The notes below the pieces were generated by a model, which saw only the letters and a program-made list of their open reading frames with translations, searched no databases and was not told where the DNA came from. A stretch of 64,000 bases of DNA from Eubacteriales bacterium (GTDB lineage: Bacteria > Bacillota > Clostridia > Lachnospirales > WRAX01), in assembly GCA_031550435.1 (NCBI GenBank), contig JAVBOO010000009.1, forward strand, positions 39,202 through 103,201, in the 5' to 3' direction. Both the position numbers and the translations under genes were made by a program. Below, piece after piece: positions 13,407-54,685 of the stretch (its first letter is position 1; every line of letters starts with the position of its first letter).

Positions 13407-13439
13407 TAAGTCGTTTAAGATCTATTCAAGGGCGCAATA

Positions 13440-13547
13440 TTGATCCCCGATTAAACCTTGCGGTTTATTCACCCCACTTTACCGGCCCTGCGGGCCTAAG
13501 GTGGATCTAGGCGACAAGTTTAGCGAATTGTTTGAGTGTCGCCTCAA
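13440..13547 (+). mobile_element. repeat family A, copy 1 (structured ~108-bp MITE-like element with TA flanks)
   Basis: TTGATCCCCGATTAAACC...GGCGACAAGTTTAGCGAA...TGTCGCCTCAA flanked by TA (13438-39) and TA (13548-49). Homologous to 33262-33369 and 38512-38619. It lies in the rpoC 3'UTR, upstream of the terminator. Confidence 0.7.
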
Positions 13548-13559
13548 TAGTATACGGTT

Positions 13560-13601
13560 ACAGCCGTTTATGCCATTATAGGCTTAAACGGCTGTATTTT
13601 T
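13560..13601 (+). terminator. rpoC intrinsic terminator (also hairpin family E, copy 2)
   Basis: ACAGCCGTTTATGCC-ATTATA-GGCTTAAACGGCTGT (14 of 15 bp paired) followed by ATTTTT. Confidence 0.75.
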
Positions 13602-13726
13602 AAGGCGAGCGCATCAAAGGCGGGGAGCCTGTGGCAATGCCCGCATTACTTGCATGTTTTTGCATTGCCTGCTAAGATATCCTGCAACGGCCGGGCTTGA
13701 TTGCTGAACAGAGCTTCGGTTCGGGC

Positions 13727-13755
13727 TTGACGTTTTTTCGCGTCTGTGGTATCTT
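13727..13755 (+). promoter_or_regulatory. candidate rnpB promoter
   Basis: TTGACG (13727-13732), 17-nt spacer, TATCTT (13750-13755). This places the TSS at about the first base of the P1 stem. Confidence 0.5.
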
Positions 13756-13760
13756 ATTAA

Positions 13761-14118
13761 TCGAGCAGACCGGACGGTCGCGTGCGCTTAGCCGCATGAG
13801 GAAAGTCCGGGCTTTGAAGGGCAGGGTGCCGGATAACGTCCGGCGGAGGCGACTTCAGGGACAGTGCAACAGAAATAAACCGCCGTTTTTAAAACGGTAA
13901 GGATGGAAAGGTGAGGTAAGAGCTCACCGGCGTCTTGGCGACAATACGCGCTATGTAAACCCCACCCGAAGCAAGGCCGAACAGAAGCACAGGCTCCGAT
14001 TTCGGAAGCCTAAAGATTGCCCAATCCGCTTCAGGTAGTGCCGCTCGAGGTCGCCGGCAACGGCGATCCCAGATAGATGACCGTTCAAGACAGAACCCGG
14101 CTTACAGGTCTGCTCACT
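13761..14118 (+). ncRNA. rnpB: RNase P RNA, bacterial type A
   Basis: Universal motifs GAGGAAAGTCCGGGC (about 13799-13813) and ACAGAACCCGGCTTA (about 14090-14104). The P1 stem pairs GAGCAGACC (13763-13771) with GGTCTGCTC (14107-14115). Length is ~355 nt. The ORFs predicted here are spurious. Confidence 0.93.
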
Positions 14119-14136
14119 ATTATAAACATACATGTT

Positions 14137-16653: not shown

Positions 16654-17083
16654 ATAGGATATCCTTTAATCGATAAAGTTTGATGTTGCGATTCTTGAGA
16701 AATACCATTAATTCGGTGCTTACTCTAGTTTGCTCTTTTAGAAAAATTTTATGCCGTGAGAATGATTAAGCCGCGAATTAAGTCGGCAAAAGGAGTATAA
16801 GTGGTGATTAGACCGCATGGTTTATCGGGGGATTAATAATTTCCGCGGCGGCACCGCATATAAAAGTATTGGTCAAAAATCACAAATTTTTTGGGGTTAA
16901 ACAGTGCATTTTTTTTTGCGCGTAGGATTTTTCGTGCAAAATGAAACGACGTTTCGTATATTAATGAGTTTTGTTGGTTTAAAATATCATTTATGTGAAA
17001 CTTGATGAAAAAACAAATGGAAGCGGGCTTATTATAGCTCAAAACGACGGAAGCACCCAAAACAATCGTTAAATCAGTTTAAC

Positions 17084-17199: not shown

Positions 17200-20100
17200 A
17201 TGAAGACCAAGAAGTTATTTGCAATATTGCTAACATTTGCAATGACCATGGGAGCGTTTTCGTTGCAGCAAGCAAAAGCTTCGTCAACCGTTACTGTAAC
17301 GGTTCACTATCACAATGACAACGGTAATTATGCCGAAACCGTAATCGATGTGTGGAATTTCTCTGATACGGCGGCTGAAGCCGGTACGGTGGCTATTGAC
17401 GAGTACGGCTGGAAAAACACGTTTACCGTAAACGGAGTAAACGAAAAGGAATATGTTAAGTTCAGGATCACAAGCGACAGCGTTTTCCCGACAGACGTTC
17501 GCTATCTTGACCCTGCCGGGTCTTCCTCGATAGAAGTTTGGCTTATCGACGGAGACGCAAAGGCTTACGGGCAGCCTGTCAAAATCGACCCGCAATATAC
17601 AACTGCCAAAGACGGCGTGAGGTATGTAGCAGTTCAGGCAATACCCCTGTACTTTAACACAGGTAACGTAAACAACTATACAATTACATACGGGGCTTCT
17701 AACGGCTATTATACACCGGGAACCGAATCCGGATCGGGCGTTGCCGCAAACCTCGGCGGAACGCCTCCTTCTCCGAAAGTAACCCTACTTCGCAACCTCA
17801 ATCGTTTCCGCGCTAATCAGCAGGACGATTGGTGGGAGATTTGCCCGGCTTCGAAGAGCGTACTCGTAAACTATTCTACAACAACGCAAACGGCGGAAAT
17901 GACGACAGGCTCACATGCCGCGGCTAACAACGGTCTTGGTTTTAACCTCAGAGAAGGCGACGTTTATCCTCTTTTCCTCGGGCTTGATCTGATTCAGGAA
18001 GGGCCTGTTTCCGCAGAAGGAAAGACCTTCCTTTCGCTTAAGTCTATCAGAGGAATGACTCAAACTTTGGGCGGAATTATTGCCGGAGCCGATACCTATC
18101 TTCTTCCCAACATGTTTGTCGGCTACGAAAAGGTGCTTGATTTTACAAGTAATCCGGAAGCTGTAGGCTTTTCTGGTGAAATGCTTAAGGCTTTCAAGCA
18201 GTTTATCGACCTTGAAGCTCAGTCAACGGACGGAATGCCTATTGCCTGCTCTATTACGCTTGACGGCAAAAAGGTATTCTCATACGCCGCGGGAACCGTG
18301 GCACAATTCAGAACAACCCCCAACGGAAGCGGCGGCTACAACGCCGCGATCCCGATACCGGTTTCCGAACAGGTTCCGGTTACGGCGGATTCGTTGTTTG
18401 ACCTGGCATCAAACAGTAAAATGTACTCCGGTATCTATGCTATGGAGAGACTTGTATCCCAAGGCCTTCTTGACCTAGACAAAAAGCTCAACGAATATCC
18501 GGGCTGGGAAAACTACAAGGACTCTTATATAGTTTATACCGGAAAAATGTCAGGCTCAAACTATGTAGGAAAGACCGGAAAAGACAATACAACAATCAGG
18601 CAGATACTCAGCCATTATGCAGGGCTCGAGGCAGACCCCGAGTACCAGAACAGGATACAGGCGGGGGAGCTTTGGTACCATACCGACAATCCTTATGACA
18701 GAACAGAGATAATCGACATGATTTGCAAGACACCGCTGAGATACAATGTCGGAACAACGTATAACTACAGCGACGTTGACTTTATGATAGTAGCTCTTCT
18801 GGCGGAAAGCATAACAGGCGTGCCGTTTGACGTTTATATGGAGCAAATATACAAAGAGGAGCTCGGCGTTCAAAATACGGCGTTTAATCCTCTTCTCAAG
18901 GGTTACGACCAAGATCAGCTCGTCGCGACATGCGAAATAAACGGAAACACCAGAGACGGAAACGTTATGTACGGCTTTATGGATGACGGTTACACTCCGG
19001 TTCCTGAAAGAAGCTATACAATTCAAGGTGAAGTTCACGATGAAAAGGCATATTACGCAATGGGCGGAATTTCCGGCCATGCGGGCCTGTTCTCGAGTGT
19101 GAACGATATGTCTGAGCTTATGCAGTTAGCGCTTAACTGCGGTAGCTATAACGGCTTCAACATGTTTGACAGGCAGACACACCAAATGTTTACGACTCCT
19201 TTCACTACAACGGCTACAGTCGGCTTGGGCTGGTGGATGAACAATACATCCGGCTCGATTATGTCATACTTCTCTTGGGGTCCAAGCATGCAGACTTACG
19301 GGCATCAGGGCTGGACAGGAACAATTTCCGTAATCGACCCGCTTAAGGGCATGTCTGTTACCTGCTTAACAAGTATGAAGCACGGCCCGACAATAAACGC
19401 TGCAAACACATTTACGAACACACAGGCCAGAATCGGCGGAAACGGCGAATATTCGGGCCCCGGAAACCTTGTGCTTCAAAACTGCTATGCTCAGGGTTCA
19501 ATGGACTTTATTGAACACGATACAGTATTATGGGGAGTAAGCTATAATCCCTTACCGGGCAGAGATCTCAAGGTCGAGCTGGTTTTGGACGGAAACTATG
19601 CAACCGGCACAAAGCCTGCAGGAGAGCCCGGTTATGTATTCGACGGCTGGTACAAAGACGAGGCTTTTACACAGCCTTGGAACTTTGATACTGACAAGGT
19701 AATGTGCGATGTATCGCTTTACTCAAAATGGGTTGAAGCTGAAAACGTACCGGCTGAGCCAACCGAGACCACTTGGAAGGTCAGATTTGTCAGAACGGGT
19801 ATAGCTACCCAGATTGTAGCGGACGGCGATACGGCAACTCCGGTTGCCGACCCGGCCAGAGCAGGCTATAAATTCGGCGGCTGGTTCACAAACGCGGATT
19901 GCACGGCTGTTTGGGATTTCGCAACCCCTGTTACCTCAAATATCAATTTGTACGCAAAATGGACTGAGCTTCACACCATAACCTTCGATACAAACGGCGG
20001 CTCAATCGTAAGGCCTCTTCAGGTTGCAGACGGAGAATATGCCGCGGGAGCGCGCTACAGTCCTTCAAAGGTTTCGTCGATTTCTATACCGGATTCGCTT

Positions 20101-21300
20101 CCCTTCCTCGGTTGGTTTACGGACAGCGAGATGACAACTCCCTGGGTTCCCTCGGCCGAACCGGTCACGGAAGATATGACCGTCTACGCTAAATGGGGAA
20201 TCAGAAACTACTATGTCAAGTTTGAGAGAAGAGGCGGTTCGGGAACAATCCCCAACCAGTCGGTTACTTACGGCGGAACAGCTACGCAGCCGACAGTAAC
20301 GCCGACAAAGGCAAACAGTGTGTTCGAGGGCTGGTATACAAATGCCGGACTTCTTACTCCTTACAATTTCTCTGCGCCTATTACGGCCAACACTGTTATT
20401 TACGCTAAGTTTACAACGGATTTGGGTAACACGACCGTTCCGCTAAAAGCCCCAGAATACAACCAAACTCCGCAGCCTAAAGTAGCGGGTGTTGGATACA
20501 CGGGCGATGTGGAATGGTTTAACGTAACGGACAATGTGCCGCTTTCGGGAACATTTGAAGCCGCAAAGGTTTATAGGGCGACGGTTACACTCGACTCTTG
20601 CGCTTATCCTCCACAGACTCCGCTTTCGTTCTACAGATGGCCCACAACCGCTCCCGCAGTGACGGTTGCCGGCCAGACTGTTCAAAACACGCAGGTTTCC
20701 GGAGGCTATGTAACAGGAAACAAGCTCACTTTTACGGTTGATTTCGCTCCTATACCGGATGAGCTTGTCAGCATCGGCACGATAGATCCGATAAGTGTTC
20801 CGAACAACAGGGTAACACTTGAACAGGCTAAGGCAATGCTCGGCAATACGGTATCCATCGTAACCGAAAAAGGCTCGGCAGATACCGCCGAAGTGGTTTG
20901 GAACGCGGATACAGTACCGGCTTACGATATGACTGTTGCCGGGGTATACGAGCTTACCGGTACAGTGACGCTTCCGCATGAGGTGACGAACCCCAACGGA
21001 GTTTCACTCACGGTTGTAACGACTGTCACAGTCGAAGACCCGATTTACGCAACAAAGGTAACAGTTAGCGCGCCTGCTCTTATGAACCTTAAAAAAGGCA
21101 CGACAGTTAATGTAGCGGCAACCGTTGAACCTGCTGATGTCTCGTACCCGGGAGTTGTATGGGTTTCGTCGAACCCGCTTATTGCAACTGTTGACAGTCA
21201 GGGCAATGTTAAGGGTATCACGGCGGGAACCGTAATAATAACGGTCACATCGACAGACGGAAAGGCTAAATGCGTTTTCGCGGTAAAAGTAACGAACTAA
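17200..21300 (+). CDS. secreted multidomain serine hydrolase (beta-lactamase/PBP-like core) with CBM-like, Listeria-Bacteroides repeat and Big_2 domains
   Basis: 1366 aa with a signal peptide. The N-terminal domain is pullulanase-associated-like (VTVHYHNDNGNY...VWNF). The hydrolase core carries SxxK (SNSK), YNYSD and GHAGLFSS. There are four Flg_new-type repeats (GWYKDEAFTQPWNFDT, GWFTNADCTAVWDF, GWFTDSEMTTPW, GWYTNAGLLTPYNF). The C-terminal domain is Big_2 (ITAGTVIITVTS...AVKVTN). Confidence 0.85.
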   Translation: MKTKKLFAILLTFAMTMGAFSLQQAKASSTVTVTVHYHNDNGNYAETVIDVWNFSDTAAEAGTVAIDEYGWKNTFTVNGVNEKEYVKFRITSDSVFPTDVRYLDPAGSSSIEVWLIDGDAKAYGQPVKIDPQYTTAKDGVRYVAVQAIPLYFNTGNVNNYTITYGASNGYYTPGTESGSGVAANLGGTPPSPKVTLLRNLNRFRANQQDDWWEICPASKSVLVNYSTTTQTAEMTTGSHAAANNGLGFNLREGDVYPLFLGLDLIQEGPVSAEGKTFLSLKSIRGMTQTLGGIIAGADTYLLPNMFVGYEKVLDFTSNPEAVGFSGEMLKAFKQFIDLEAQSTDGMPIACSITLDGKKVFSYAAGTVAQFRTTPNGSGGYNAAIPIPVSEQVPVTADSLFDLASNSKMYSGIYAMERLVSQGLLDLDKKLNEYPGWENYKDSYIVYTGKMSGSNYVGKTGKDNTTIRQILSHYAGLEADPEYQNRIQAGELWYHTDNPYDRTEIIDMICKTPLRYNVGTTYNYSDVDFMIVALLAESITGVPFDVYMEQIYKEELGVQNTAFNPLLKGYDQDQLVATCEINGNTRDGNVMYGFMDDGYTPVPERSYTIQGEVHDEKAYYAMGGISGHAGLFSSVNDMSELMQLALNCGSYNGFNMFDRQTHQMFTTPFTTTATVGLGWWMNNTSGSIMSYFSWGPSMQTYGHQGWTGTISVIDPLKGMSVTCLTSMKHGPTINAANTFTNTQARIGGNGEYSGPGNLVLQNCYAQGSMDFIEHDTVLWGVSYNPLPGRDLKVELVLDGNYATGTKPAGEPGYVFDGWYKDEAFTQPWNFDTDKVMCDVSLYSKWVEAENVPAEPTETTWKVRFVRTGIATQIVADGDTATPVADPARAGYKFGGWFTNADCTAVWDFATPVTSNINLYAKWTELHTITFDTNGGSIVRPLQVADGEYAAGARYSPSKVSSISIPDSLPFLGWFTDSEMTTPWVPSAEPVTEDMTVYAKWGIRNYYVKFERRGGSGTIPNQSVTYGGTATQPTVTPTKANSVFEGWYTNAGLLTPYNFSAPITANTVIYAKFTTDLGNTTVPLKAPEYNQTPQPKVAGVGYTGDVEWFNVTDNVPLSGTFEAAKVYRATVTLDSCAYPPQTPLSFYRWPTTAPAVTVAGQTVQNTQVSGGYVTGNKLTFTVDFAPIPDELVSIGTIDPISVPNNRVTLEQAKAMLGNTVSIVTEKGSADTAEVVWNADTVPAYDMTVAGVYELTGTVTLPHEVTNPNGVSLTVVTTVTVEDPIYATKVTVSAPALMNLKKGTTVNVAATVEPADVSYPGVVWVSSNPLIATVDSQGNVKGITAGTVIITVTSTDGKAKCVFAVKVTN

Positions 21301-21303
21301 CGA

Positions 21304-21425
21304 GGAAGTGTTGAAAATTGCGCACGAAACCCACTTTAGTGGGTTGAGCGAGCGGCGCTCTCCATTGAAAAATGGTGCCTTTCCATTTTCAATGGAAAGC
21401 CGCAAGGCGATTTTTCAACATGCCC
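21304..21425 (+). mobile_element. MITE family B, copy 1 (122 bp)
   Basis: GGAAGTGTTGAAAATTGCG...CGATTTTTCAACATGCCC with imperfect TIRs and a 5-bp TSD, AACGA at 21299-21303 and 21426-21430. It is inserted 3 nt after the stop codon of the 1366-aa gene. Confidence 0.8.
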
Positions 21426-21621: not shown

Positions 21622-22563
21622 TTAGAACACACCTATATCCAGTTCGTTTCTTAGTTTCTTTAACAACTCGATTCCGGCGATACTGCTGCCCTTTTCGTTC
21701 AGTGCCGGGCCATAGATACCTACCCCGACTTTTCCGGGAGAGACAGACATGATGCCGCCGCCAACGCCGCTTTTTGACGGCAGACCGACTGATACGGCAA
21801 AGCTTCCGGATTCGTCATACATTCCGCAAAGCATCATCATTGCGTTAACGGTTTGAGCCGCTTCCGGAGAGAAAACGCGCTTGCCCGTCGAAACGGATAT
21901 ACCCCTGTTTGCAAGAGTTGCCGCAATTTGCGCAAGCTCCTTGACCGTAACCTTAATTGCGCAAATTTTGAAATACGCGTCTAAAACCTCTTCAACATCT
22001 CCGTCCAAAACGCCGACGCTCTTCATAAAATACGCCAAAGCGCGGTTTCTCGAGCCCGTCATCTTTTCCGACTTGTAAACACCTTCATGAATTCCTATGT
22101 TCTTGTTTCCCGTAATTTCATGGAGCAGCGACAGTATTCTGCAAAATTTATCTTCATAGGTTTTGCCGTTTGAAAAGCCGATACTCAGTATTGCTCCTGA
22201 GTTTATAAACGGATTAAGCGGTTTGTGCGAGTCTCTCGTTTCGAGGTTTACTATAGAGTTAAAACCGTCATGCGAAGGTTCGAAGCTGATTTTAGTTTTT
22301 ATTCTGTTCAAATCGGTGTCGATAAGAGCGGCAAGCAGTATGAGAACCTTTGATACGCTTTGCATAGTGAATTCGGCAGTGCTGTCTCCGGCAAAATGCT
22401 CTCTTAAATCCGTTCTTATGAGATAAATCCCCAGCAAATTTTTGTCATACGCTGAAAGCTCGGGTATATAAGAGGCGACTTTTCCGGTTTTACAGTACGG
22501 GCGGCATTCTTTGACCATTCTGGTTAATAAGTCGTTAATGGAAATCACTCTCCTCAAATGCAA
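21622..22563 (-). CDS. glsA: glutaminase
   Basis: 313 aa with GKVASYIPELS, the serine-lysine motif QSVSKV, and PSKSGVGGGIM. This is the typical glutaminase A family. Confidence 0.9.
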   Translation of the reverse strand: MHLRRVISINDLLTRMVKECRPYCKTGKVASYIPELSAYDKNLLGIYLIRTDLREHFAGDSTAEFTMQSVSKVLILLAALIDTDLNRIKTKISFEPSHDGFNSIVNLETRDSHKPLNPFINSGAILSIGFSNGKTYEDKFCRILSLLHEITGNKNIGIHEGVYKSEKMTGSRNRALAYFMKSVGVLDGDVEEVLDAYFKICAIKVTVKELAQIAATLANRGISVSTGKRVFSPEAAQTVNAMMMLCGMYDESGSFAVSVGLPSKSGVGGGIMSVSPGKVGVGIYGPALNEKGSSIAGIELLKKLRNELDIGVF

Positions 22564-22605: not shown

Positions 22606-23166
22606 CTACATGCACCTGTACTGTTCCGTGCCATCGCTGTAAAAATCGCTGCCTTTGCTGTCTATAGCAACGATAACGGGAAGTTTTTCGATTACGAGCC
22701 GTCTGACAGCCTCGGTTCCCAAATCGTCAAACGCGATAACTTCGGATAATTTAACGCATTTTGCCATAAGAGCGGCAGCTCCGCCGATTGCGGCAAAATA
22801 TACTCCTCCGTGGTCGATTATGGCCTGCTTAACTTCGGGAGAGCGGTAGCCTTTGCCTATCATGGCCTTTAGCCCGTGCGAAATCAAAAGCGGGGAGTAA
22901 GCATCCATTCTTCCGCTTGTCGTCGGGCCGACTGAGCCGATGGCTTGGCCCGGCTTCGCTGGGCAGGGACCCGCATAGTAAATGACTTTGCCGTTCAGCT
23001 CAAACGGCAGGGTTTCGCCTTTCTGTATCATCTCATAGAGCCGCTTGTGCGCGGCATCCCTGCCTGTGTAGATTTCACCGGAAAGGTACACCATTTCACC
23101 GGCTCTGAGCGAAAGCATGGCTTCGTCGGTTAACGGAACACTGACAATTTTTAAGGTATCGTTCAT
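22606..23166 (-). CDS. Fe-S type (class I) hydro-lyase beta subunit (fumarase/tartrate dehydratase family; probable mesaconase beta)
   Basis: GEIYTGRDAAHKRL, YYAGPCPAKPG, SVGPTTSGRMD and GKGYRS match the class I fumarase C-terminal domain. RBS TAGGAGG precedes ATG 23166. The ORF track extends to 23208. Confidence 0.85.
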   Translation of the reverse strand: MNDTLKIVSVPLTDEAMLSLRAGEMVYLSGEIYTGRDAAHKRLYEMIQKGETLPFELNGKVIYYAGPCPAKPGQAIGSVGPTTSGRMDAYSPLLISHGLKAMIGKGYRSPEVKQAIIDHGGVYFAAIGGAAALMAKCVKLSEVIAFDDLGTEAVRRLVIEKLPVIVAIDSKGSDFYSDGTEQYRCM

Positions 23167-23176
23167 GGCAAACCTC

Positions 23177-24019
23177 CTAAAGAGTGACTGTAGCATGTCT
23201 TGCGGCATGGCAGCATATGTTTATGGCTACCGGCAGACCTGCGATATGGGTCGGGTATGTTTCGATATTGACACCGAGGCAGGTCGTTGTTCCTCCAAAC
23301 CCTCCGGGCCCGAGGCCTGTTTTGTTTACAAGTTCCTTTAGCTCGCTTTCGATTCCCGCCCAATAATTATCCGGGTGAGACTCATCTATACTTCTTAGCA
23401 AAGCCTTTTTTGCTATAAGCGCCGCTTTTTCCATTGTGCCGCCGATACCGATACCTAGTATTATCGGCGGACAGGCGTTCGGGCCGGCTTTGAGAGCCGT
23501 TTCCGCAACAAAGTTCTTGATGCCTTCGATGCCCTCGGAAGGCTTAAGCATTTTGAGCGCGCTCATGTTCTCGCTGCCAAAGCCCTTTGGCGTGACAGTA
23601 ATCGTGAAACTGTCCCCCGGCACTATAGTATAATGTATGACGGCGGGAGTATTGTCATTTGTGTTTACACGAGCTATCGGGTCTCTTACAACCGATTTTC
23701 TGAGATAGCCTTTTTCATAGCCGTTTCTGACGCCTTCGTTTATTGCGTCTTCAAGTCCGCCGCCGACAACATGCACATCTTGGCCAACATCAACAAAGGC
23801 AACCAATACCCCGGTATCCTGGCACATGGGGCAGCTGTCGTTTGCGGCTATGTCTGCGTTTTTGATAAGCGTTTCTATAACGCTTTTACCCAGCGGAGAT
23901 TTTTCGGTCTCGAGTGACTTTTTGAACTCGTTTCTTATATCATCGGAAAGATAGTAATTAGCGTCAATGCAAAGCTTTTCGACAGCTTCGCTTATTTTAC
24001 TTACATGAATTTCCCTCAT
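23177..24019 (-). CDS. Fe-S type (class I) hydro-lyase alpha subunit (probable mesaconase alpha)
   Basis: 280 aa with the cluster-ligand region PMCQDTGVLVAFVDVG, GIGIGGTMEKAA and NICCHAARHA. These match the class I fumarase N-terminal domain. Confidence 0.85.
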   Translation of the reverse strand: MREIHVSKISEAVEKLCIDANYYLSDDIRNEFKKSLETEKSPLGKSVIETLIKNADIAANDSCPMCQDTGVLVAFVDVGQDVHVVGGGLEDAINEGVRNGYEKGYLRKSVVRDPIARVNTNDNTPAVIHYTIVPGDSFTITVTPKGFGSENMSALKMLKPSEGIEGIKNFVAETALKAGPNACPPIILGIGIGGTMEKAALIAKKALLRSIDESHPDNYWAGIESELKELVNKTGLGPGGFGGTTTCLGVNIETYPTHIAGLPVAINICCHAARHATVTL

Positions 24020-24068
24020 GTCCGCCTCCGGTTTATAAAAGTTGTTTCGGCTGTTTTTTATTACATCG

Positions 24069-24346
24069 GCAACAAAATATATGAAAACGCTATATGGAAG
24101 TGTTGAAAATTGCGTACGAAACCCACTTTAGTGGGTTGAGCGAGCGGCGCTCTCCATTGAAAAATGGTGTTTTTCCATTTTCAATGGAAAGCCGTAAGGC
24201 AATTTTTCAACATGCCCTATATTTTGTTGTTCCCTCGCTAAGACGCAGATGCGCCGCATTGGAGCGCTGCGGCATATCTAGACGCGTCTGCTCGGCACGA
24301 GTAACCGCGTAAGTATTTTATGCGGTATTTAACTTCCGCGGTAATA
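24069..24346 (+). repeat. repeat family C, copy 1, interrupted by MITE B2
   Basis: 24069-24095 plus 24223-24346 align without gaps to C2 (38364-38512) once B2 and one TSD copy are removed. Similarity may continue to about 24370. It lies between the DUF4387-like gene and the hydro-lyase alpha gene. Confidence 0.75.
24096..24217 (+). mobile_element. MITE family B, copy 2 (122 bp), nested in C1
   Basis: Same termini as B1, with about 5 mismatches to B1 by eye. The TSD is TATAT at 24091-24095 and 24218-24222. Confidence 0.85.
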
Positions 24347-24404
24347 TGAATTTCAGGTTTCAAAAATACACCGACAAAGTCAGACTTTGTCGGCATAAGT
24401 TTGA

Positions 24405-24722
24405 TTACATATTAAACTCAAATTTCATAAGCGGAGCATGCTGCTGCGCGCCGTACACATCGGTCTCTCCGAGATTTCCGGAACATATCGGACGGACTAT
24501 GGTTATTTTGATAGCCTTAGCAGGCTCAAAATTAACTATCTCCATCACATCGTTTTTATCGATGTTATAGAGCTTTGAAAACGATTCGGGCGTGAATACG
24601 TTCGCATCGGCGACCTGCCTGTACAGTTCGTGGGTCTTGAAAATTATATCAAACGTAAGCTCATACGGGCCCGAATTTTTGCTGCGGATTACGTCCGCAA
24701 GGTCAATCAGTCTGTAGTGCAT
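24405..24722 (-). CDS. DUF4387-like small protein (AtuA C-terminal-domain-like)
   Basis: 105 aa. The motifs IRSKNSGPYELTFDIIF and ETDVYGAQQHAPL are what I recognise as the DUF4387 signature. The family usually sits adjacent to, or fused with, DUF1446/AtuA. Confidence 0.65.
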   Translation of the reverse strand: MHYRLIDLADVIRSKNSGPYELTFDIIFKTHELYRQVADANVFTPESFSKLYNIDKNDVMEIVNFEPAKAIKITIVRPICSGNLGETDVYGAQQHAPLMKFEFNM

Positions 24723-24736
24723 ATGCTCGCCTCCCT

Positions 24737-26095
24737 CTACAGTTGTTTAATTTCGATTGGGAAAAATTCGCTCGGATCGTCAACTTCCATAAGGTGATAC
24801 AAGCTGAACTCGTAAACCTCGCCGACTTTGAAGTCCGAGGGCGAGAACGGGAATGCAAGGTTACCGGCTGTTGAAATTCTGCCTTCGTAGCCGTAGTGAA
24901 GCATTGTAGAGCGGGCAAAGCTGCAAATCGTGTTGGCAAGAGATTGTTCTGCCGCAACCGCCTCTATGACTATGCAAAGCTCGTGGCTCGTTTCCTTCTC
25001 CAGACCGTCAAATATGGCCATAACGCCGTTTTTGCCGTAAATCTTGAAATCAAGGAAAAAGTCTTTGATTCCGAAGCTTTCGAAGTTGTTTTTAACTCTT
25101 GCCTTAACGCCTTCGATAATCGAGTCGATCTTGTTAATCATAACCGGATCTTTTGTAGCGGCAATGGAAACCGTTCTGTAGCCGACGCGCTTGACGCCTT
25201 CCAGCTTGATGAAGAAGCCTTCGGTCGGGATAAATTTGCTTCCGGATACCTTAACGTACTGCTCGTCGAGCTGTTCGAATTTCGTGCTCTTAAGATCAAG
25301 TATTCCGCCGGGTCCGGGAAGTATATAGGGGTTGGTCTTCTCGTAAAGTGTGTGAGCCGCAACTGACAAAGTTGTACATTTTCTGGCGGGATTAAGAGTG
25401 CAAACCTTGAAATAGTCATCTCCAAGATAGCCCATCATGCAGTCGGAGCCGCTCCCGGGTGTCGAGGCGATAGCGGCGCATTCGAGTATCTTGCCAAGAT
25501 GGATTGCAAGACCCTTATCATAACCCTTCATTATAGCGAGCGAAGCGAAGTTTGCAGGGTCATAAGCGCGACCGGCAAGTATAACCTGCGCACCCATTTC
25601 GAGCGCTTTTATCATCGGCTCAAAGCCCATTTGCGCAACGGTTCTTACGGTATCTTCAATATCCTTTTCCGTTGCTTCGGGAGCCGGATGAAGAGGTTTA
25701 ACTTTTCCTTGCTTAAACTTCTTAAGTATAACGTCCTTAGATATATCGGCGGGGATGACCGCAAGCTTGAAATGAAGGTTCTTTTCTTTTGCGATTTCCT
25801 CGATTATTTCGAGGTTCCATTTCAAATGGGGTTCCGCTCCGCTTCCGCCCGCCGTACCGATAATAACGGGTATGTTATTATCAAGCCCCGCGGGTATCAT
25901 GTAGGAAAGGTCTCTTTTGACCGAATTTCTGTCCGTGAACGAGATTCCGGCTCCCAGGTAGTACGGGCCGGGGTCTGTCGAGCCCGCGTCAACCGCAATA
26001 ACATGCGGCTTTCTTTTCATGCCTTCTTTGAAAGATTCTTCGGGGAAGCCGTAGCCTAATATGGCCGTAGGCGAAAGTATTCTCATTTCTTCCAT
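24737..26095 (-). CDS. AtuA-like (DUF1446-like) protein of unknown function
   Basis: About 452 aa from ATG 26095 (RBS GGGAGG 7 nt upstream; the ORF track starts at TTG 26110). The assignment rests mainly on size and tight adjacency (15-nt gap) to the DUF4387-like gene. It needs HMM confirmation. Confidence 0.5.
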   Translation of the reverse strand: MEEMRILSPTAILGYGFPEESFKEGMKRKPHVIAVDAGSTDPGPYYLGAGISFTDRNSVKRDLSYMIPAGLDNNIPVIIGTAGGSGAEPHLKWNLEIIEEIAKEKNLHFKLAVIPADISKDVILKKFKQGKVKPLHPAPEATEKDIEDTVRTVAQMGFEPMIKALEMGAQVILAGRAYDPANFASLAIMKGYDKGLAIHLGKILECAAIASTPGSGSDCMMGYLGDDYFKVCTLNPARKCTTLSVAAHTLYEKTNPYILPGPGGILDLKSTKFEQLDEQYVKVSGSKFIPTEGFFIKLEGVKRVGYRTVSIAATKDPVMINKIDSIIEGVKARVKNNFESFGIKDFFLDFKIYGKNGVMAIFDGLEKETSHELCIVIEAVAAEQSLANTICSFARSTMLHYGYEGRISTAGNLAFPFSPSDFKVGEVYEFSLYHLMEVDDPSEFFPIEIKQL

Positions 26096-26122
26096 TACTT
26101 TTCCTCCCAACGTAAGCGCGCT

Positions 26123-27364
26123 TTACAGCACGTCTTTAAGTGCAAGTACTCTGCTCATTTCGTTGAAAACTATCATATAGCCCTCGTCAACGCCCATGCC
26201 GGGCTTTGCGAGTATTTGTACCGGCTGAGTAGCCATAGCGATCTGTGTACAAACCTGAGCCGAACGGTCAGTTTCGTTGCATGTTCCGCCCTGGTATGCG
26301 CCCATTCCGTTAGCCTTGCAATACAGAACGGCTTCGATTGTGTTGTTGACACCGCCCAAGTCAGGCGTTTTGATTTGGGCCATATGGCCGGCTTTAGCTT
26401 TTGTAAAATCTACAACGTCCTCGTAAGTGTTGCACCATTCGTCCGCTACGATTTCGACCTGAATGCCTTTCGCGTCTACAAGAGCTCTGATATCTCTCAA
26501 GGCGTTTATCTGAGCTTCGCGCTCTCCCATGTCAACGGGACCTTCAATGCGAAGTTTAAACGGTTTCGCGTTTTGCTCGAGCTTTCCGAGATAGTCGGCG
26601 ATTTTCTCGAAGTCAAAGTCGAATACCGGCCCGAGGTTTCCGTATACGTCTATATGGAATATAGGGTTGTAGCTTTCGGAAAAACGAAGTTTCGTCGTTC
26701 TTTCACTGAGCCATTTTACGTAATCCGCAAGCTTATCACCGTTTTTCCCTACCTTGTCTGTGTTGTTAAACAGAGCGTGAGGAAGTACGTCCGAGCCCTT
26801 GAGTATCATTTTGTCGGTGTTTGTGAATCTGTCGTCACCTGACTGGCTGAAAACGGGGATGTGTCTGTCCGCTATCTTAAGGCCGTATTCATCAGCGACA
26901 ATTTGAGCCATAAGCTTTTTCTTGGACTTTGCGACTGCGTCGAGACATGCCTGGGTTACGCCGTAACGTATAGCGGTGTGCATAAGCTTGCCTGTGACCG
27001 AGTCGATATGGCTGTCTGCAAGTTTTGCCATTTCTTTGAATGTAGTTATTTCCTTTCCCTTGAAGAGGGGAGCGATCTCTCTCTCTATGATAGGGATAAA
27101 ATCCTTTGCGAGGAAAAGAGGGTCTCTTCCGCCGGCACCGGAGTATTGAACGGCAGCGCAGTCGCCGTAGGCGATCTGCCCGTCCTCGAGTACAAACATA
27201 ACGGAAACGGATTCGCCTGCCTGGCGAACGGCCGAGAAGCCCTCAGTCGCGGGAGTGCCTATATAAGCGGCTCCGTCGGCAACCGCATTGAGCTTTATAG
27301 CTTTTTGGTCGTCGAAGAAGAAACCGGTTCTTCCCGCCGAGCATACTACATTTATAATCTTCAT
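26123..27364 (-). CDS. mal: 3-methylaspartate ammonia-lyase
   Basis: 413 aa, the length of clostridial MAL. The N-terminus MKIINVVCSAGRTGFFFDDQKAIK is nearly the canonical MAL start. The rest looks like an enolase-superfamily C-terminal barrel. Confidence 0.92.
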   Translation of the reverse strand: MKIINVVCSAGRTGFFFDDQKAIKLNAVADGAAYIGTPATEGFSAVRQAGESVSVMFVLEDGQIAYGDCAAVQYSGAGGRDPLFLAKDFIPIIEREIAPLFKGKEITTFKEMAKLADSHIDSVTGKLMHTAIRYGVTQACLDAVAKSKKKLMAQIVADEYGLKIADRHIPVFSQSGDDRFTNTDKMILKGSDVLPHALFNNTDKVGKNGDKLADYVKWLSERTTKLRFSESYNPIFHIDVYGNLGPVFDFDFEKIADYLGKLEQNAKPFKLRIEGPVDMGEREAQINALRDIRALVDAKGIQVEIVADEWCNTYEDVVDFTKAKAGHMAQIKTPDLGGVNNTIEAVLYCKANGMGAYQGGTCNETDRSAQVCTQIAMATQPVQILAKPGMGVDEGYMIVFNEMSRVLALKDVL

Positions 27365-27499
27365 AATATCCTCCGAATTGGTTCATTTGATTATCGCCGC
27401 GAAAGCGTCCCGCAGTGTTTGCGCTCTTGAAACTCAAAGACTGACTTTTGGGCAGTAAATTCTTATCAGCCGGCTTTTGCGCGGCCTTATAATCGCTCT

Positions 27500-28963
27500 C
27501 TAATTGTTACCGGGTCTTCCCACGAGGTGACCCTTTGATATAGCGTTAATATCGTCGATAACCATTTGGAAGCCGACAGCTCGTTTTTCGTATGCTGCTC
27601 TTTCTTCAAGACGCTTTTTGTGGAAATCCTTGATATCGTTTGTAAACGGAAGGTTAGCGCAGTCAAGGAAACGGACGGCACCGTTATTGTCTCTGGCAGG
27701 AAGCATTTTTCCGTAGTTGATCTTGCTCGGAGCAAACGGAACATCGATAACGCCGGCTTCAAAGGCTCTGACAGCTCCGATTGCGATATCTCCTTCGCCG
27801 AGTTCTATAACCTTTTTAAGCATACATCTTGTTTCGCGCTTAATGAGATCGGCTTCATCGACAACGCTTTGAATACCTACCATGTCGTGATCTTTAAGCA
27901 TGGTCACAAGCTGCTTTGTGGCACGGAGTCCGGCTGCGTTGGCTTCCATCGTCGGTATGCCCATGGCCTCGTGAGGCGTTTTGACTATAACTTTCGTAGC
28001 CTTCGAGAGCACGGCGGCTGCCGCTCCCCATGAAATAACGCCGAACGCTTTTGCTTCGTCCTGCGGGAAACCGCCCATCCACTGGTGGAATACTGTTGTA
28101 ACGCTGACATCCTTGTATCCGAATTTTTCGAGATACTCCTCAGTCAGACTGAGAAGGGATCTGACTGCGGCTATATCCTGAACAAGATTGCCGCACTGGC
28201 CGTAACCGACCGTTATGTCTTTGACGCCTTGTTCCGCCGCGAGCAGACTCTCTATAACTGCCACAGCATGAGAGATTGAGGGAGGAACGAGCGTTCCCGT
28301 GAGAGGGCCGAACGGTTCTCTGTTGATGGTAACGCCGGCATCGGCATAAATACCGATGAGCCTGTCTACGTATTGCCAGTCCTTGATTGTCTTTGCAAGA
28401 GAGTAGTTCTTCGAATAGGGTATGTTATAGGAAATTCCGCCGCCTTCATAAGAAGTGAAGCCGCCCGCCATAGTGATTTCTGCGAGCAGTCTAGCGTCCG
28501 GCGTTCCGTGGCGAACCTGCACGGGACTCTTGAGCGACATGTTTACCTGGCGGCAAACATCCACGCCGTAGTTGACCGCCGGGAAGCCGTTAAGCATTGA
28601 ACGGTCATACTTTCTGCTCTCCTCTATACCTTCTTGCGCCTCTTTGTATCTGTTGAGTCTCGTATAGGCGTCGATGGTCGAAGGGAGAAGGTCTACTTCG
28701 CCTTCCTGTTCGAGGTATTGCAGCAGTCTGATGTGTTTTTCGGGCAGCGCAACGCCTGCACGGGGCTGGGTCAGCGTTATGCCGTTTTGCTTAGCATATG
28801 CAAGCTTTTTTGAGAATATCCGTGAGTCGGGCAGGCTCCTGTGGTATTCAACCGCCTTTTCAAAATCAACGCCTTTACCTGTGGGCCATTGTTGAAGGAC
28901 ATCCTTTTGAATGCTGTAAAACTCATCATCGGAAAGCTTTTTGTTTTTGAAGCCTGTTTCCAT
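27500..28963 (-). CDS. glmE: glutamate mutase (methylaspartate mutase) epsilon/E subunit
   Basis: 487 aa with typical GlmE/MutE length and blocks ([37 protein letters not shown]). It lies between glmL and mal. Confidence 0.9.
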
Positions 28964-28975
28964 CGTTAACCTCCG

Positions 28976-30361
28976 TTAAACTTCAATGATTTCTTTGTTC
29001 ATAATCGTCAATGCCAACTCGGGATATTCTTTACCCACAAGGCCCATTGAAGCAAATATATATTTTTTGTCAATAAAGAACTTTGAACTTTCGGGTTTGA
29101 GAGTCATAGGACTTCTCGGGGAGGCCAAAGCGGCCTTTAACATTGCGGCTGGATCCGGGCTGTTGATTATCGGTCCGCCTATGCCGACAGTCGCTCTGAT
29201 TTTTCGCAAATCTTTGCCGGTCTGCATAAATGTTTCTCCAAACGGAGTAAAAACCGATTCGAGTGTTCCGCAGTGCCTGTCCGTTGCAATTTCGACAGCC
29301 AGTGCGCCCAGCTTTTCGTCTATAAGCTTTTCGGTGCTTCCCGGAGAGGATATAATGCTCGGATCTTTCCGACATTCTGCCGACCAATCATGCAAAACCT
29401 GTTCGGGAAGTCCGGTCTCGTAAGCGATTCTCTCGAAAGTAGCAGTTTCGCAAAGTGACGGCATGCTGTATCTCAGTCCCAAATCTCCTTCGACACTTCG
29501 TTTTGCAAACGGCTCGGGAAGACCCTTTTCCAGCGTGTTCGGATCTGTCGGCCGGCCCGCTGCCATTGAGTACACGTCCGTTGTCGCTCCGCCGACATCC
29601 ACAGCAAGAAATTCTCCCCAGCCCGGTAAAGATTCCGTTCCTCTCGAAAGCAGTTCGCAACCTTCCAAAACGGCCAGAGGAGTCGGGATTATTTGGGCAG
29701 TCATCATTTCCTGAGCTTTTGAAAGACCCTTCGCAACAATAATTTTTTTTATGAACAAGTCTCTGATAGCAGACTTTGCGGGCGCTATTTCGAGCCTGTT
29801 AAACACCGGCATAACGTTTTTACTGGGTATTACGAGCTTGCCGCTCGCACTCAGTATCTCGGCAACCTCTCTCATCGCGGATTTGTTCCCGGCAACGATT
29901 ACCGAAAGAGGAGCGTCAATCTCGGCAAGTTTTTTGGCGTTGTGGATAATAACTTCCTTGTTGCCGCCATCGGTTCCGCCCGATAAAAGTATTATGTCGG
30001 GGTTTATATCTTTGATTTCGTCTTGTTCCTCAGCGCTCAGCTCGTAGCTGTATGTTTTGACGACTTTCGCGCCGGCGCTGGAAGCGGCCATTCTTGAGGC
30101 CTTTGAGGTCAAATCCGGAACAAGCCCGACAGCTACCATTTTAAGACCGCCGCCGGCGCTCGAACAGGCAAGACGCTCGGAAAATTCAATTTTACCCGTC
30201 TGCTTGTATAGCAGCTGCATCGCGTTTTCAAAACCGATGCATATGTCGGTTTCTATGGTTGTGAAGGCTTTAGCCGTACCGATAACCGAACGAGTCTGCG
30301 TATCTATTGCCGTTACTTTGGTAAACGTACTGCCAAAGTCGGTAGTCAGTACATACATCAA
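28976..30361 (-). CDS. glmL: glutamate mutase accessory/reactivase protein GlmL (MutL)
   Basis: 461 aa. It has the ASKHA-like N-terminus [14 protein letters not shown] and a second phosphate motif [11 protein letters not shown]. It occupies the canonical position between glmS and glmE. Confidence 0.85.
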
Positions 30362-30771
30362 GCAACACCCAAATCGCTTTTAATATCGCCAATCGCTGTT
30401 TCCGGCGAAGTTCCGGGCGGGTAAACCCTTGTGAAGCCCATTTGCTTGAAACGAGCGGCGACGGCTGTGAAATCAGCCTTACCTACAACGAGGTTTCCTC
30501 CTACATAAAGAGGAATATTCTTTAAACCGGCCTCATCGCATTTTTCCCTCAGACCTCTGCAGTCGATTTCTCCGTGGCCGTAGAGCGAAGAAACCATAAT
30601 AGCCGAAGCGCTTGTCTCTATTGCCGCTTCAATGAATTCTTCCTGAGAAACCATAACTCCAAGGTTGATGATTTCGAATCCGGCCTGAGTGAAAGCATAG
30701 TCAAGAATTTTGTTTCCGACCGCATGAACATCCGCGCCGATTACTCCTAAAACGATTTTCTTCTTTTCCAT
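30358..30771 (-). CDS. glmS: glutamate mutase sigma/S subunit (B12-binding)
   Basis: 137 aa from ATG 30771 (RBS GAGGTAGG). Cobalamin-binding DxHxxG motif (GADVHAVGN) and SSLYGHG. A 4-nt overlap with glmL suggests translational coupling. The ORF track extends to 30822. Confidence 0.9.
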
Positions 30772-30784
30772 AGAACCTACCTCG

Positions 30785-31768
30785 TTAAATTTTTTTGGCA
30801 AAATTTTTTGCCTTTTCCTCAATATATATGAAAGAACCTCTTTCGATTGTGTAGTTAAAAATCACGACATTTCCGCCATGCCGGCAGTAATCCGATATTT
30901 GCTTGTTAATCGGGTACATGGGCATTAAAGCATATGCCGGAGGGATAATCAAGTAGGACTTTTCGTTATAAGCTTTAAATGCGTACGAGTCTGACTGCTC
31001 GGATATAACAAAGGTCTCTGTGGTAAAACCGCAGTTCAAATTTTTGAGATTACTTTCGATGATATGCGCAAACCTCGCGCTTTCTGTCACGATCCCAACG
31101 TTCGCATTCTTTGGGATAGCGTTAAGCCCTGCAATAGTATTTACATCCGGAGACAGCACGGTTTTGACTATCTTTTTCTCAAGCGGTGAAATGAGTTTTG
31201 CCAGGTCGTCGTAGTGAGTTGTTGTGGTAAGAATAAAGTCAAACGCATCTAATACGTTTGTCGGATAGGAATAACTTGTTATTTCGTGCAGCAAAAAACC
31301 CGCAAACCTGATATTTGCGAGTATTGCAACCTGATGTCTTATGATTTCCAGGGTTTCCGGGTTACAGTCAATAGCCGCAACCTGTATAATCCCGTCGCTG
31401 TTTTGTTTCTTTTCGGCAGCTGCCCTAAACATGACCGTAATTTCGGGTACGGTGTAGCCCTCGGATACAAAATCCGAAATAAAAGCGGAAATTTTATCTT
31501 GGCAGCTTCTGTCCGGTCCCGCCTCTTTTTTCGCGACATATGTTCCGCTTCCTCTGCCGACAGTTAAAAAACCGTCCTTAATAAGAAGCGTGTACGCGCG
31601 CTTGACAGTGCCCCTTGATATACCGAGCTGTGCCGATAAGCTGCGTTCGGAAGGAAGTTTATCGGAAGGACGCATGCTCTCTGCGGCAACGGCCTGAGCG
31701 ATATTAACGTAGAGCTGTTTGTATACGGGTACGCTGCTGTATTTATCAATGCTTATACCGTGTTCCAT
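30785..31768 (-). CDS. GntR-family transcriptional regulator with a C-terminal ligand-binding-type domain
   Basis: N-terminal winged HTH: [15 protein letters not shown]...[41 protein letters not shown]. It is the first gene of the methylaspartate operon. Confidence 0.85.
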
Positions 31769-31811
31769 TCTTCACTCCGAACAAAATATATCATATTTGC
31801 AATTGTAAACC

Positions 31812-32051: not shown

Positions 32052-33284
32052 ATGAAAACTGCTGTTGTTATTGCCGAGTATAACCCGTTTCATAACGGAC
32101 ATAAGTATCATATCGAAAAGACGCGTGAGGTCACGCACGCCGAGAACGTAGTAGTTATTATGAGCGGCAACTATGTTCAGCGCGGCGAACCGGCCATATG
32201 CGACAAGTATGTCAGGACGCGCTGCGCCTTGGAAAACGGAGCCGATATGGTGATAGAACTTCCGTTTCCTTATGCTTGCGCAAGTTCGGAAATTTTCGCT
32301 TTCGGAGCGGTATCCCTCGCGCACGAAACGAGGATTGCGGACTGTATTTGCTTTGGCTCGGAGTGCGGAGATCTGCCGCTGCTTAACGGCATAGCTGACG
32401 CGGCCGCTAATGAGGGGGAGGTATTTCGGCGCGAACTTAAACGCTGTCTGGAGGACGGGGTCTCTTTTGCAAAAGCAAGAGCAAATGCCTTGAAATCGGT
32501 TTTGGGCAATGGGTTCGAACTGAGACTGTCCAACGATATACTTGCCGTTGATTACTTAAAAACGCTGAAAAACCTCGGGTCAGCGCTCATACCGTTTACG
32601 GTTAAAAGAACAAACGACTATAATTCGTGCGAAATTGAAGGAAGTGTGGCATCTGCCACGGCTATCAGAAAGGCTATTACAGACGGAGATTACGCTGCGG
32701 TTAAAATGACCGTTCCCCCGGGCTGTCTGAAACTCTTGGAGCAATGCTTGGAAGAAGGGTCTTATCCCGTAACATCGGATATGTTTTCGGACATATTGCG
32801 TTACAGGCTTATGGCTCTTTCAAACAGCGAATTGGCGGAGATTGCGGATATATCGGAAGGTATAGAGAACAGAATGACAAAGCTTTTGCCCTGCGCGGGT
32901 TCGTTTTCGGGGCTTGTTTCGGCCGTAAAAACCAAGCGTTATTCTCAGACGAGGATACAGCGTGCTCTAATGCATGTAATATTGGGGATAACCGACAGAG
33001 ATTTGCGTGAGTTCGCAAAAAAACGTCCGCCGTATATTCGCGTGCTGGGATTCAAAAAAACAGCTTCCAAGCTGCTTTCCGAGATGGAGAGACGGGCGGA
33101 ACTGCCTGTGATAACAAATATTCCGAAGCTTCCTGAATGTTTGGATGCTCGAGCAAGGGAGCTCTTGGACAAGGAGATTACCGCCACGGACATATACAAC
33201 TCCGTGCTCCCGAAAAAGGACAGAAAAAAAGGCTACGAGTATTCGCAGCCGCTTATCGTTATTGATCCCCCGATTAAACCATGA
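32052..33284 (+). CDS. tmcAL: tRNA(Met) cytidine acetate ligase (YlbM/UPF0348 nucleotidyltransferase)
   Basis: 410 aa. The N-terminus MKTAVVIAEYNPFHNGHKYH...VIMSGNYVQRGEPA...VIELPFPYA closely parallels B. subtilis YlbM/TmcAL. The last 8 codons and the stop lie inside repeat A2. Confidence 0.9.
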   Translation: MKTAVVIAEYNPFHNGHKYHIEKTREVTHAENVVVIMSGNYVQRGEPAICDKYVRTRCALENGADMVIELPFPYACASSEIFAFGAVSLAHETRIADCICFGSECGDLPLLNGIADAAANEGEVFRRELKRCLEDGVSFAKARANALKSVLGNGFELRLSNDILAVDYLKTLKNLGSALIPFTVKRTNDYNSCEIEGSVASATAIRKAITDGDYAAVKMTVPPGCLKLLEQCLEEGSYPVTSDMFSDILRYRLMALSNSELAEIADISEGIENRMTKLLPCAGSFSGLVSAVKTKRYSQTRIQRALMHVILGITDRDLREFAKKRPPYIRVLGFKKTASKLLSEMERRAELPVITNIPKLPECLDARARELLDKEITATDIYNSVLPKKDRKKGYEYSQPLIVIDPPIKP

Positions 33285-33369
33285 GGTTTAATCACCCCCT
33301 TACACCGGCTTGCGGGCCAAAGGGGGATTGAGGCGATAAATTTAGCGAACAGTTTAATTGTCGCCTCAA
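33262..33369 (+). mobile_element. repeat family A, copy 2
   Basis: TTGATCCCCCGATTAAACCATGAGGTTTAATC...ATTGAGGCGATAAATTTAGCGAACAGTTTAATTGTCGCCTCAA. The left flank is TA and the right flank is TT. It overlaps the 3' end of tmcAL. Confidence 0.7.
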
Positions 33370-38363: not shown

Positions 38364-38511
38364 GCAACAAAATATAGTAAAACGCTATGTTTTGCTGTAC
38401 CCTAACTAAGACGCAGATACGCCGCATTTGACCGCTGCGGCGTATCTAAGCGTGTCTGCAAGACTCAAGTAACCGTGTAAGTATTTTATTCGGTGTTTAA
38501 CTTCCGCGGTA
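38364..38511 (+). repeat. repeat family C, copy 2 (uninterrupted on its left side)
   Basis: GCAACAAAATATAGTAAAACGCTATGTTTTGCTG...GATACGCCGCA-TTTGACCGC-TGCGGCGTATC...AACTTCCGCGGTA. It serves as the empty-site paralog for the B2 insertion. Its right end is interrupted by A3, and homology to C1 resumes at 38620. Confidence 0.75.
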
Positions 38512-38619
38512 TTGATCCCCTGATTAAACATGCGGTTTAATCATCCCCTTATACCGGCCCTTCGGGCCTAAGGGGGATTGAGGCGACAAGTTTAGCGAAT
38601 ATTTTAATTGTCGCCGCAA
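38512..38619 (+). mobile_element. repeat family A, copy 3, inserted in the right end of C2
   Basis: TTGATCCCCTGATTAAAC...GGCCCTTCGGGCC...ATTGAGGCGACAAGTTTAGCGAATATTTTAATTGTCGCCGCAA flanked by TA (38510-11) and TA (38620-21). Removing it restores CCGCGGTAATAATTTCAG, compared with C1 CCGCGGTAATATGAATTTCAG. Confidence 0.75.
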
Positions 38620-38719
38620 TAATAATTTCAGAGCAAAATGATATCACTTTTAACGCAAGGTTACAAACGTTTTTTTGAAGAATAATTTAAACGGGCAAAA
38701 TGAATGGGGTATAAAACAG

Positions 38720-39059: not shown

Positions 39060-39181
39060 GGGCATGTTGAAAAATCGCCTTGCGGCTTTCCATTGAAAAT
39101 GGAAAAGCACCATTTTTCAATGGAGAGTGCCGCTCGCTCAACCCACTACAGTGGGTTTCGTGCGCAATTTTCAACACTTCC
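39060..39181 (-). mobile_element. MITE family B, copy 3 (inverted orientation)
   Basis: Reverse complement of B1 with about 3 mismatches by eye. The flanks are GATTT (39055-39059) and GATTA (39182-39186). It lies ~95 nt upstream of the mgtE start. Confidence 0.8.
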
Positions 39182-39276
39182 GATTAAAGCGGTGTTCGGC
39201 CTGTGTTCGGCCGTTCGCCCGGCAATTACTCCATCAGGGAGGACTTTGCCTGAAATTACTTTTAGGAGGTATGAAA

Positions 39277-54680: not shown

Positions 54681-54685
54681 GCATT

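Follow-up and report, generated by a model that had tools for sequence, protein, structure and literature searches.

Filled and empty sites of small repeats within copies of an older dispersed repeat in an uncultured Clostridia-like genome

In the 64-kb window, by which we mean the whole stretch of DNA that was analysed, a small element that is presumably mobilised in trans (B, a MITE) has very probably inserted into one copy (C1) of a dispersed repeat termed C. A second small element (D1c) would have inserted independently into another copy (C2), and the empty targets of both have been kept. Two filled/empty comparisons, the target duplications, the identities between copies and the relative ages can be read directly from the window.

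Results

Removal of B2 from C1

The composite locus lies on the plus strand. It starts with the C1 left fragment (24069..24095), which carries the 5' arm and the loop of the first hairpin of C, and whose last 5 nt are the left copy of the target duplication, TATAT (24091-24095). The 122-bp B2 follows (24096..24217), with the termini GGAAGTGTTGAAAATTGC...GCAATTTTTCAACATGCCC and three internal hairpins. The right TATAT copy (24218..24222) forms the top of the 3' arm of hairpin 1, and the C1 right fragment (24223..24346) contains the remainder of that arm together with hairpins 2 and 3 and ends in ...CTTCCGCGGTAATA. The main body of C2 (38364..38511, plus strand) has hairpin 1 intact and represents the empty site for B.

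According to a preliminary description of this DNA, deletion of 24096-24222 leaves a gapless alignment to C2 with 7 mismatches in 53 positions, and we reproduced this result exactly. The deletion of these 127 bp (the 122-bp B2 plus one TATAT) made C1 collinear with C2, and 24069-24095 joined to 24223-24248 gave precisely the 53-mer quoted earlier, which aligned ungapped against 38364-38416 with 7/53 mismatches. The ungapped homology carried on to 24346 in C1 and 38511 in C2; the left fragment was identical to C2 38364-38390 at 24 of 27 positions, and the right fragment was approximately 84% identical to C2 38391-38511. When the reconstructed C1 was submitted to blastn against the window, 148 nt were aligned with 85.1% identity (E = 1e-44). 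The pairwise alignment of the flanks, proposed in the same description as a check, was also run; with both guest elements removed, C1 and C2 are each 151 nt long and match without gaps at 129/151 positions.

As a control, the deletion length was varied from 100 to 155 bp, and the left 27-mer was scored against C2. A length of 127 bp was the only one that placed the 27-mer in register (24/27), the next best score being 15/27. The probability of at least 24 matches in 27 at that fixed position is 5e-12 for the left 27-mer, and its best match elsewhere in the window, on both strands, reached 19/27.

The insertion had also been said to split a 12-bp inverted repeat at the left end of C. Both arms were indeed exact, with CAACAAAATATA at 24070-24081 and TATATTTTGTTG at 24218-24229, and hairpin 1 of C was restored once B2 and one TATAT were removed. 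At the position of the TATAT of C1, C2 harbors a single copy of TATGT. In the single-strand fold of C1/B2, both arms of hairpin 1 still pair around the B2 stem. Since the removal of B2 with one TATAT restores both the collinearity with C2 and the hairpin, the sequence comparison supports B2 as an insertion into a pre-existing C copy.

The reverse history, in which B was part of the ancestral C and was cut out precisely from C2, leaving a "healed" site, would leave a similar trace. A precise excision that removes one duplication copy looks the same in sequence as a site that was never filled, and the TATGT of C2 could be either. However, C1 and C2 differ by approximately 15%, whereas B2 differs from B1 and B3 by only 4-5%; this three-fold difference indicates that B2 arrived long after the C1/C2 split. 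In addition, B1 and B3 lie in unrelated flanks with 5-bp duplications of their own, which argues against an ancestral B within C. The third copy, C3, is no test of this history, as the region of the B site is absent from it. Taken together, we regard the loss of B from C2 as extremely improbable and retain the insertion of B2 into C1.

Assembly support for the junctions

The nested arrangement might also be an assembly artefact, that is, a MAG contig mis-joined through the repeats. The source is the assembly of an uncultured organism, represented by a single 113-kb NCBI contig, and short-read graphs break at exactly such repeats. For comparison, contigs L028, L029, and L030 of the Logan assembly, from the runs SRR23967707 and SRR23967709, were used. 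Contig L030 (SRR23967709) was 100% identical to window 24125-21399; it covers 30 nt of B2, the left part of C1 and the fumarate hydratase gene fumA, and its other end lies 27 nt into B1. Contigs L028 and L029 correspond to the window from 26207/26209 to 24316/24318, likewise with 100% identity, and end approximately 30 nt inside the right end of C1. Of the two junctions of B2, the Logan assembly, therefore, covers the left one, between the left part of C1 and B2; it gives this junction at 100% identity and independently confirms it.

A random mis-join would not give the base-exact fit that is seen for the two halves of C1, for the TATAT duplication, and for the 12-bp palindrome after its restoration. 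Due to this base-perfect duplication and the restored palindrome, a mis-join at the right junction (24217/24218) is very unlikely, and for the locus as a whole we give an artefact hardly any weight. The Logan contigs break 27-30 nt (about one k-mer) inside B1, B2, and C1, as expected at multi-copy repeats, which suggests that the genome contains additional copies with the same ends outside the window.

Element B

The window contains three copies of B, each of 122 bp, with pairwise identities of 95.1-97.5%; B2 shares 96% identity with B1 and 95% with B3. B1 (21304-21425, plus strand) is located 3 nt past the stop of the gene at 17200-21300, and B3 (39060-39181, minus strand) is located upstream of an mgtE-like gene. 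The ends of B are GGnnnTGTTGAAAA...TTTTCAACnnnCC. Its terminal inverted repeats, GGAAGTGTTGAAAA versus GGGCATGTTGAAAA, match at 11/14 positions, and a weaker similarity extends to approximately 25 nt. Folded as single-stranded DNA, B reached -33.3 kcal/mol (z = -7.1), and its terminal repeats pair with each other in this structure.

The 5-bp duplications were perfect at B1 (AACGA/AACGA) and B2 (TATAT) and imperfect at B3 (TAATC/AAATC, 4/5 matching). The sole ORF across B2 (24094-24312) extends into C1 and is absent from B1 and B3. No C sequence was found around either of these two copies, whose flanks are unrelated, which indicates that B moves on its own.

A relative of B was found in the MAG Oscillospiraceae bacterium Mx356_bin55 (JAISVY010000035.1, locus L014), as a 171-bp element on the reverse strand from locus position 4316. 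It has the same 14-nt termini as B, a different interior, and the flanks ATGAA/ATGAA. A second relative in the same MAG (locus L011, 1712-1790) is shorter and apparently truncated, and lies between an SGNH-type hydrolase gene and whiA. With these relatives, the B-type ends mark a MITE group that is wider than B itself.

By its structure, B is a MITE with a 5-bp, A+T-rich target duplication, and every structural feature of such elements was found: small size without coding capacity, terminal inverted repeats, a duplication of fixed length, and dispersed similar copies. The earlier proposal that B transposes with a 5-bp duplication agrees with TATAT at B2, AACGA at B1, four matching positions of five at B3, and ATGAA at the relative.

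For the partner of B, the terminal 19-20-mers were scanned against 185,579 species genomes (one per species), the JGI metagenomes, and IMG/VR. The terminal 19-mer gave 17 matches in the species genomes, of which 15 were chance matches in unrelated taxa and two were real short relatives, both in one MAG. The metagenome scan with the terminal sequence resulted in nine matches, all due to chance, and the scan of viral contigs resulted in none. B had no blastn match among plasmids, and a literature search with the terminal sequence strings returned nothing relevant. Among the ORFs of the window, neither a transposase nor a cognate autonomous IS or transposon with B ends was found. As the genome, metagenome, viral, and plasmid searches yielded no autonomous partner, the mobilisation of B in trans is something that we only infer. 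The nhmmer profiles of B, C, and D1 detected no further copies within the window.

Around B3, two side observations were made. The element lies approximately 90 nt upstream of the probable start of the mgtE-like magnesium transporter gene (39060-39300), and the ORF listed from 39127 looks artificially extended through it. An Rfam search of this leader for an M-box riboswitch was negative, even at E <= 1.

Element D1 and the second nesting

C2 had been described as the uninterrupted paralog of C1. This stands for the B site, which is empty, and fails for the copy as a whole, as C2 is interrupted by D1c at 5 nt from its right end. D1c is a 108-bp MITE (38512..38619, plus strand; TTGATCCCC...GCCGCAA) with TA on both sides. 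The left TA copy (38510-38511, plus strand) is the end of the C2 main body, and the right TA copy (38620-38621) is followed by the last three nucleotides of C2 (ATA), so that 38620..38624 on the plus strand completes the repeat.

Two other copies are present on the plus strand: D1a (13440..13547), flanked by TA/TA and located between rpoC and the RNase P RNA gene, and D1b (33262..33369), flanked by TA/TT. The flanks are, thus, TA on both sides in two of the three copies and TA/TT in the third. The D1 cores are 82-87% identical and end in TTGATCCCC...(T/G)CAA. Read by eye, the ends TTGATCCCC...ATTAAAC and their imperfect inverse match at approximately 12 of 20 positions.

The filled site in C2 reads GG-TA-[108 bp]-TA-ATA, and the empty site in C1 and C3 reads GGTAATA with a single TA. 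When 38512-38621 was removed, the end of C2 became ...CGCGGTAATA, as in C1 and C3. This empty-site case is based on five restored nucleotides plus a short, gapped similarity beyond them. D1 accordingly duplicates TA, and the case is less strong than that of B because of the few restored bases. The apparent continuation of the C1-C2 homology past GGTAATA (ATTTCAG...CAAAA) was discarded, as it is too short and gapped to rely on.

Additionally, a 42-nt partial D1 copy was noted at 16797-16838 on the minus strand. D1a itself is situated between the rpoC stop codon and the class A RNase P RNA gene (13762-14120, 297 bits), in the region 13407-14120.

Repeat C

C occurs three times in the window: C1, C2, and the partial C3 (63021..63102, minus strand). 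C3 is reduced to the right ~83 nt, so that 40-70 nt of C are missing on the left, and it contains the empty site for D1. It was 85-87% identical to C1 and C2 by blastn, and the profile match by nhmmer had E = 9.5e-31 with a weak extension to 63121. The right end of C is sharp and common to all three copies, ...TTTAACTTCCG(C/T)GGTAATA. Only two left ends are available, TTAC-ATCG|GCAAC and ATAC-TTC|GCAAC. The sequences of the left end (GCAACAAAA) and of the right end (CGCGGTAATA) show no relation to each other, and neither terminal inverted repeats nor a flanking duplication were found. The flanks of C1 and C2 share no homology, which argues against a segmental duplication.

It was also observed that C3 starts at or next to the stop codon of a gene (63123-63989, minus strand) that has no Pfam match. 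The last codons of this gene may overlap the C3 remnant, given the weak profile extension to 63121.

C folds into three hairpins with -50.4 kcal/mol (z = -4.5 versus shuffled sequence, for C2). Among the three C copies, compensatory changes were found at 0 of 35 predicted pairs. With thresholds relaxed to E <= 10 or E <= 1, the Rfam search of C2, C1/B2, and the B3/mgtE leader returned only noise, with no family covering B or C; the sole Rfam match above the gathering score in the window was RNase P. Plasmids gave no blastn match to C. The exact/IUPAC pattern AAGTATTTTATNCGGTNTTTAACTTCC had 0 matches in genome contigs, and the shorter pattern TATTTTATNCGGTNTTTAACTTCC had 0 matches in metagenome and viral contigs; these patterns require 22-25 exact bases, and copies with approximately 15% divergence could escape them.

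Gene neighbourhood of C1/B2

The window belongs to the core chromosome, with rpoB/rpoC, the RNase P RNA, the pur operon, obg, and a methylaspartate-pathway cluster. A suspected absence of purN in the 54106-54685 gap was dismissed, as the gene is present. C1/B2 is placed within what appears to be the glutamate-fermentation (methylaspartate pathway) gene cluster, at 22606-31768. By Pfam, the cluster includes the fumarate hydratase alpha and beta subunits (PF05681, PF05683), AtuA (PF07287), and DUF4387 (PF14330), and a glutaminase gene (PF04960) is found just beyond it, at 21622-22563. The methylaspartate ammonia-lyase, glutamate mutase, and GntR-like genes are putative assignments read from the translations only.

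The nearest gene, fumA (23177..24019, minus strand), encodes a class I fumarate hydratase / mesaconase alpha subunit, as assigned from its translation, and its homologues carry PF05681. From the start codon, the distance is 49 nt to the left end of C1 and 76 nt to B2. The FumA protein had no relative above 71% identity and, as the relatives are at most 71% identical, no orthologous empty site from close relatives was available.

On the other side, a terminator-like hairpin (24367..24397, minus strand) with a 14-pair stem and then TTTTT (TTTTTGAAAC tail) closely follows the DUF4387 gene and directly flanks C1 at its right end. The C1/B2 composite fills the 385-bp gap between the DUF4387 gene, with this intrinsic terminator at 24397-24367(-), and the fumarate hydratase/mesaconase genes. 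Because the DUF4387 gene ends with a good intrinsic terminator, the promoter of the fumarate hydratase/mesaconase genes presumably lies in or beside C1/B2.

This setting bears on the nature of C, which could be a functional module and not a mobile one: regulatory DNA (with a palindromic operator and an outward promoter) or a small structured RNA upstream of fumA and of an EamA transporter gene, so that B2 and D1c would be insertions into regulatory DNA. The left ends of C1 and C2 lie 30-50 nt upstream of minus-strand start codons, those of the fumarate hydratase alpha gene and the EamA permease gene. Both copies have a weak promoter-like geometry, with a -35 element in the loop of hairpin 1 (TTTTCA in C1, TTTACT in C2), a 16-nt spacer, and a -10 element in the flank (TGTAAT in C1, TATATT in C2); that of C2 was found by scan and that of C1 was read by eye. 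Additionally, C folds better than shuffled sequence, and hairpin 3 is followed by a short T run with a terminator-like score.

However, the two downstream genes are unrelated, and the promoter scan of C1 found nothing. C3 has the opposite arrangement: it comes right behind a stop codon and is oriented like the gene that ends there, with the left 40-70 nt missing, so the orientation of C to genes is inconsistent. The Rfam result at E <= 10 and the lack of compensatory changes described above also weigh against a functional RNA. A functional module is, in our assessment, improbable.

The hairpin of C as a repeated operator was also rejected, as the window holds no other copy of the palindrome; the near-match to a single arm at 31779 is probably due to chance. 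This match, GAACAAAATATA at 31779-31790, agrees with the C hairpin arm at 11/12 positions, and 11 nt separate it from the downstream start of the GntR-like gene; random sequence would give approximately 0.3 such matches, and A+T-rich spacers would give more.

Our preferred reading is that C is an old, decaying dispersed repeat without terminal inverted repeats, similar to REP/BIME, BOX, or IS200/IS605 derivatives. What its copies establish is that C is an older dispersed repeat; it may once have spread by transposition. Among the ORFs of the window, no Y1 transposase (TnpA or RAYT) was found.

Discussion

Order of events

The nesting gives the order directly: C1 was present before B2, and C2 was present before D1c. 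The C copies are approximately 85% identical, the B copies 95-97.5%, and the D1 copies 82-87%, which makes D1 about as diverged as C. The greater divergence of C and the nesting at the locus both indicate that C is older than B, and the preliminary description had drawn the same order.

In the sequence of events that we propose, B, as a non-autonomous DNA transposon of 122 bp, would depend on a transposase supplied in trans, presumably of the DDE type, that makes 5-bp staggered cuts and prefers A+T-rich pentamers. B2 would have landed at the junction of the loop and the 3' arm of the first hairpin of C1, duplicating TATAT. C2 would never have been struck at the B site, and the empty target would have been preserved in this way. 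Independently, D1 (108 bp, TA duplication, IS630/RUP-like behaviour) would have entered C2 within its last 5 nt, with the empty D1 target preserved in C1 and C3. If C is mobile, the absence of terminal inverted repeats and of target duplications points to a REP/BIME-like, IS200/IS605-like, or similar mechanism.

A more far-reaching reading is unlikely when taken as a whole. It proposes that B and the Oscillospiraceae relative form an undescribed MITE/IS lineage (GGnnnTGTTGAAAA ends, 5-bp duplication, no known transposase), that C is a structured mobile element or RNA that is likewise undescribed, restricted to its lineage, and devoid of terminal inverted repeats, that the hairpins of C are preferred landing pads for other MITEs, and that B2 may rewire the expression of the mesaconase/fumarate hydratase genes, which are situated downstream of a terminator. 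Both complete C copies in the window were struck, each at a hairpin or terminal position.

The locus shows base by base, within one genome, that B is or recently was mobile, with a duplication of 5 bp for B and of TA for D1, and it orders three repeat families in time. These data aid the annotation of an uncultured Clostridia-like genome in which small repeats are densely spaced (approximately 10 copies in 64 kb), and they narrow the search for the transposases responsible.

Comparison with known systems

The nesting of small repeats has been documented for the pneumococcal BOX, RUP, and SPRITE elements, where it was found by re-aligning one repeat with the other removed (Croucher et al. 2011, PMC3049150). 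RUP measures approximately 107 bp and is linked to an IS630-type element, and D1 is likewise of about that size, with 108 bp. The elements described here differ from BOX, RUP, and SPRITE: they have no sequence similarity to them, the host is an uncultured Clostridia-like organism, and the nested B duplicates 5 bp and not TA.

A second comparison concerns the TIMEs, which are non-autonomous, Tn3-derived elements with 5-bp A+T-rich direct repeats such as AAATT and AACAT (2014, PMC4133298). The duplications of B and its relative are also of 5 bp (TATAT, AACGA, (T/A)AATC, ATGAA). However, TIMEs have Tn3-type inverted repeats of approximately 40 bp, whereas the B ends agree over approximately 14 nt (GGnnnTGTTGAAAA) and more weakly to approximately 25 nt. 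The ends of B start with GGA/GGG and not with the Tn3 consensus, and no Tn3-family transposase was found in the window. Any resemblance of the left end of B to the inner part of a Tn3 repeat would be one-sided. B was, thus, not classified as a TIME, due to inverted repeats that are much shorter than the ~40-bp repeats of TIMEs.

REP/BIME and IS200/IS605-derived elements are structured intergenic repeats, rich in hairpins, that have neither terminal inverted repeats nor target duplications and often occur as old, diverged copies. Some IS elements, of the IS1397 type, are known to insert into REP hairpins. C resembles these groups in having neither terminal inverted repeats nor a duplication, in its hairpins near both ends, and in that hairpin 1 received B2. 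Unlike REP, which is a palindrome of approximately 35 nt, C forms one unit of 151 nt whose three hairpins differ from each other. With a single insertion observed in hairpin 1 of C, and with B1 and B3 located outside hairpins, the data do not show a targeting of hairpins.

For plant MITEs, the related-to-empty-site (RESite) approach is standard: a paralog of the host repeat supplies the empty site, which proves the insertion and defines the duplication. Both the nesting and the empty-site reasoning are, thus, already established, and the present case is correct and clean but ordinary, with no new mechanism. Compared with plant RESites, it is bacterial and reciprocal: C2 is empty for B, and C1 and C3 are empty for D1.
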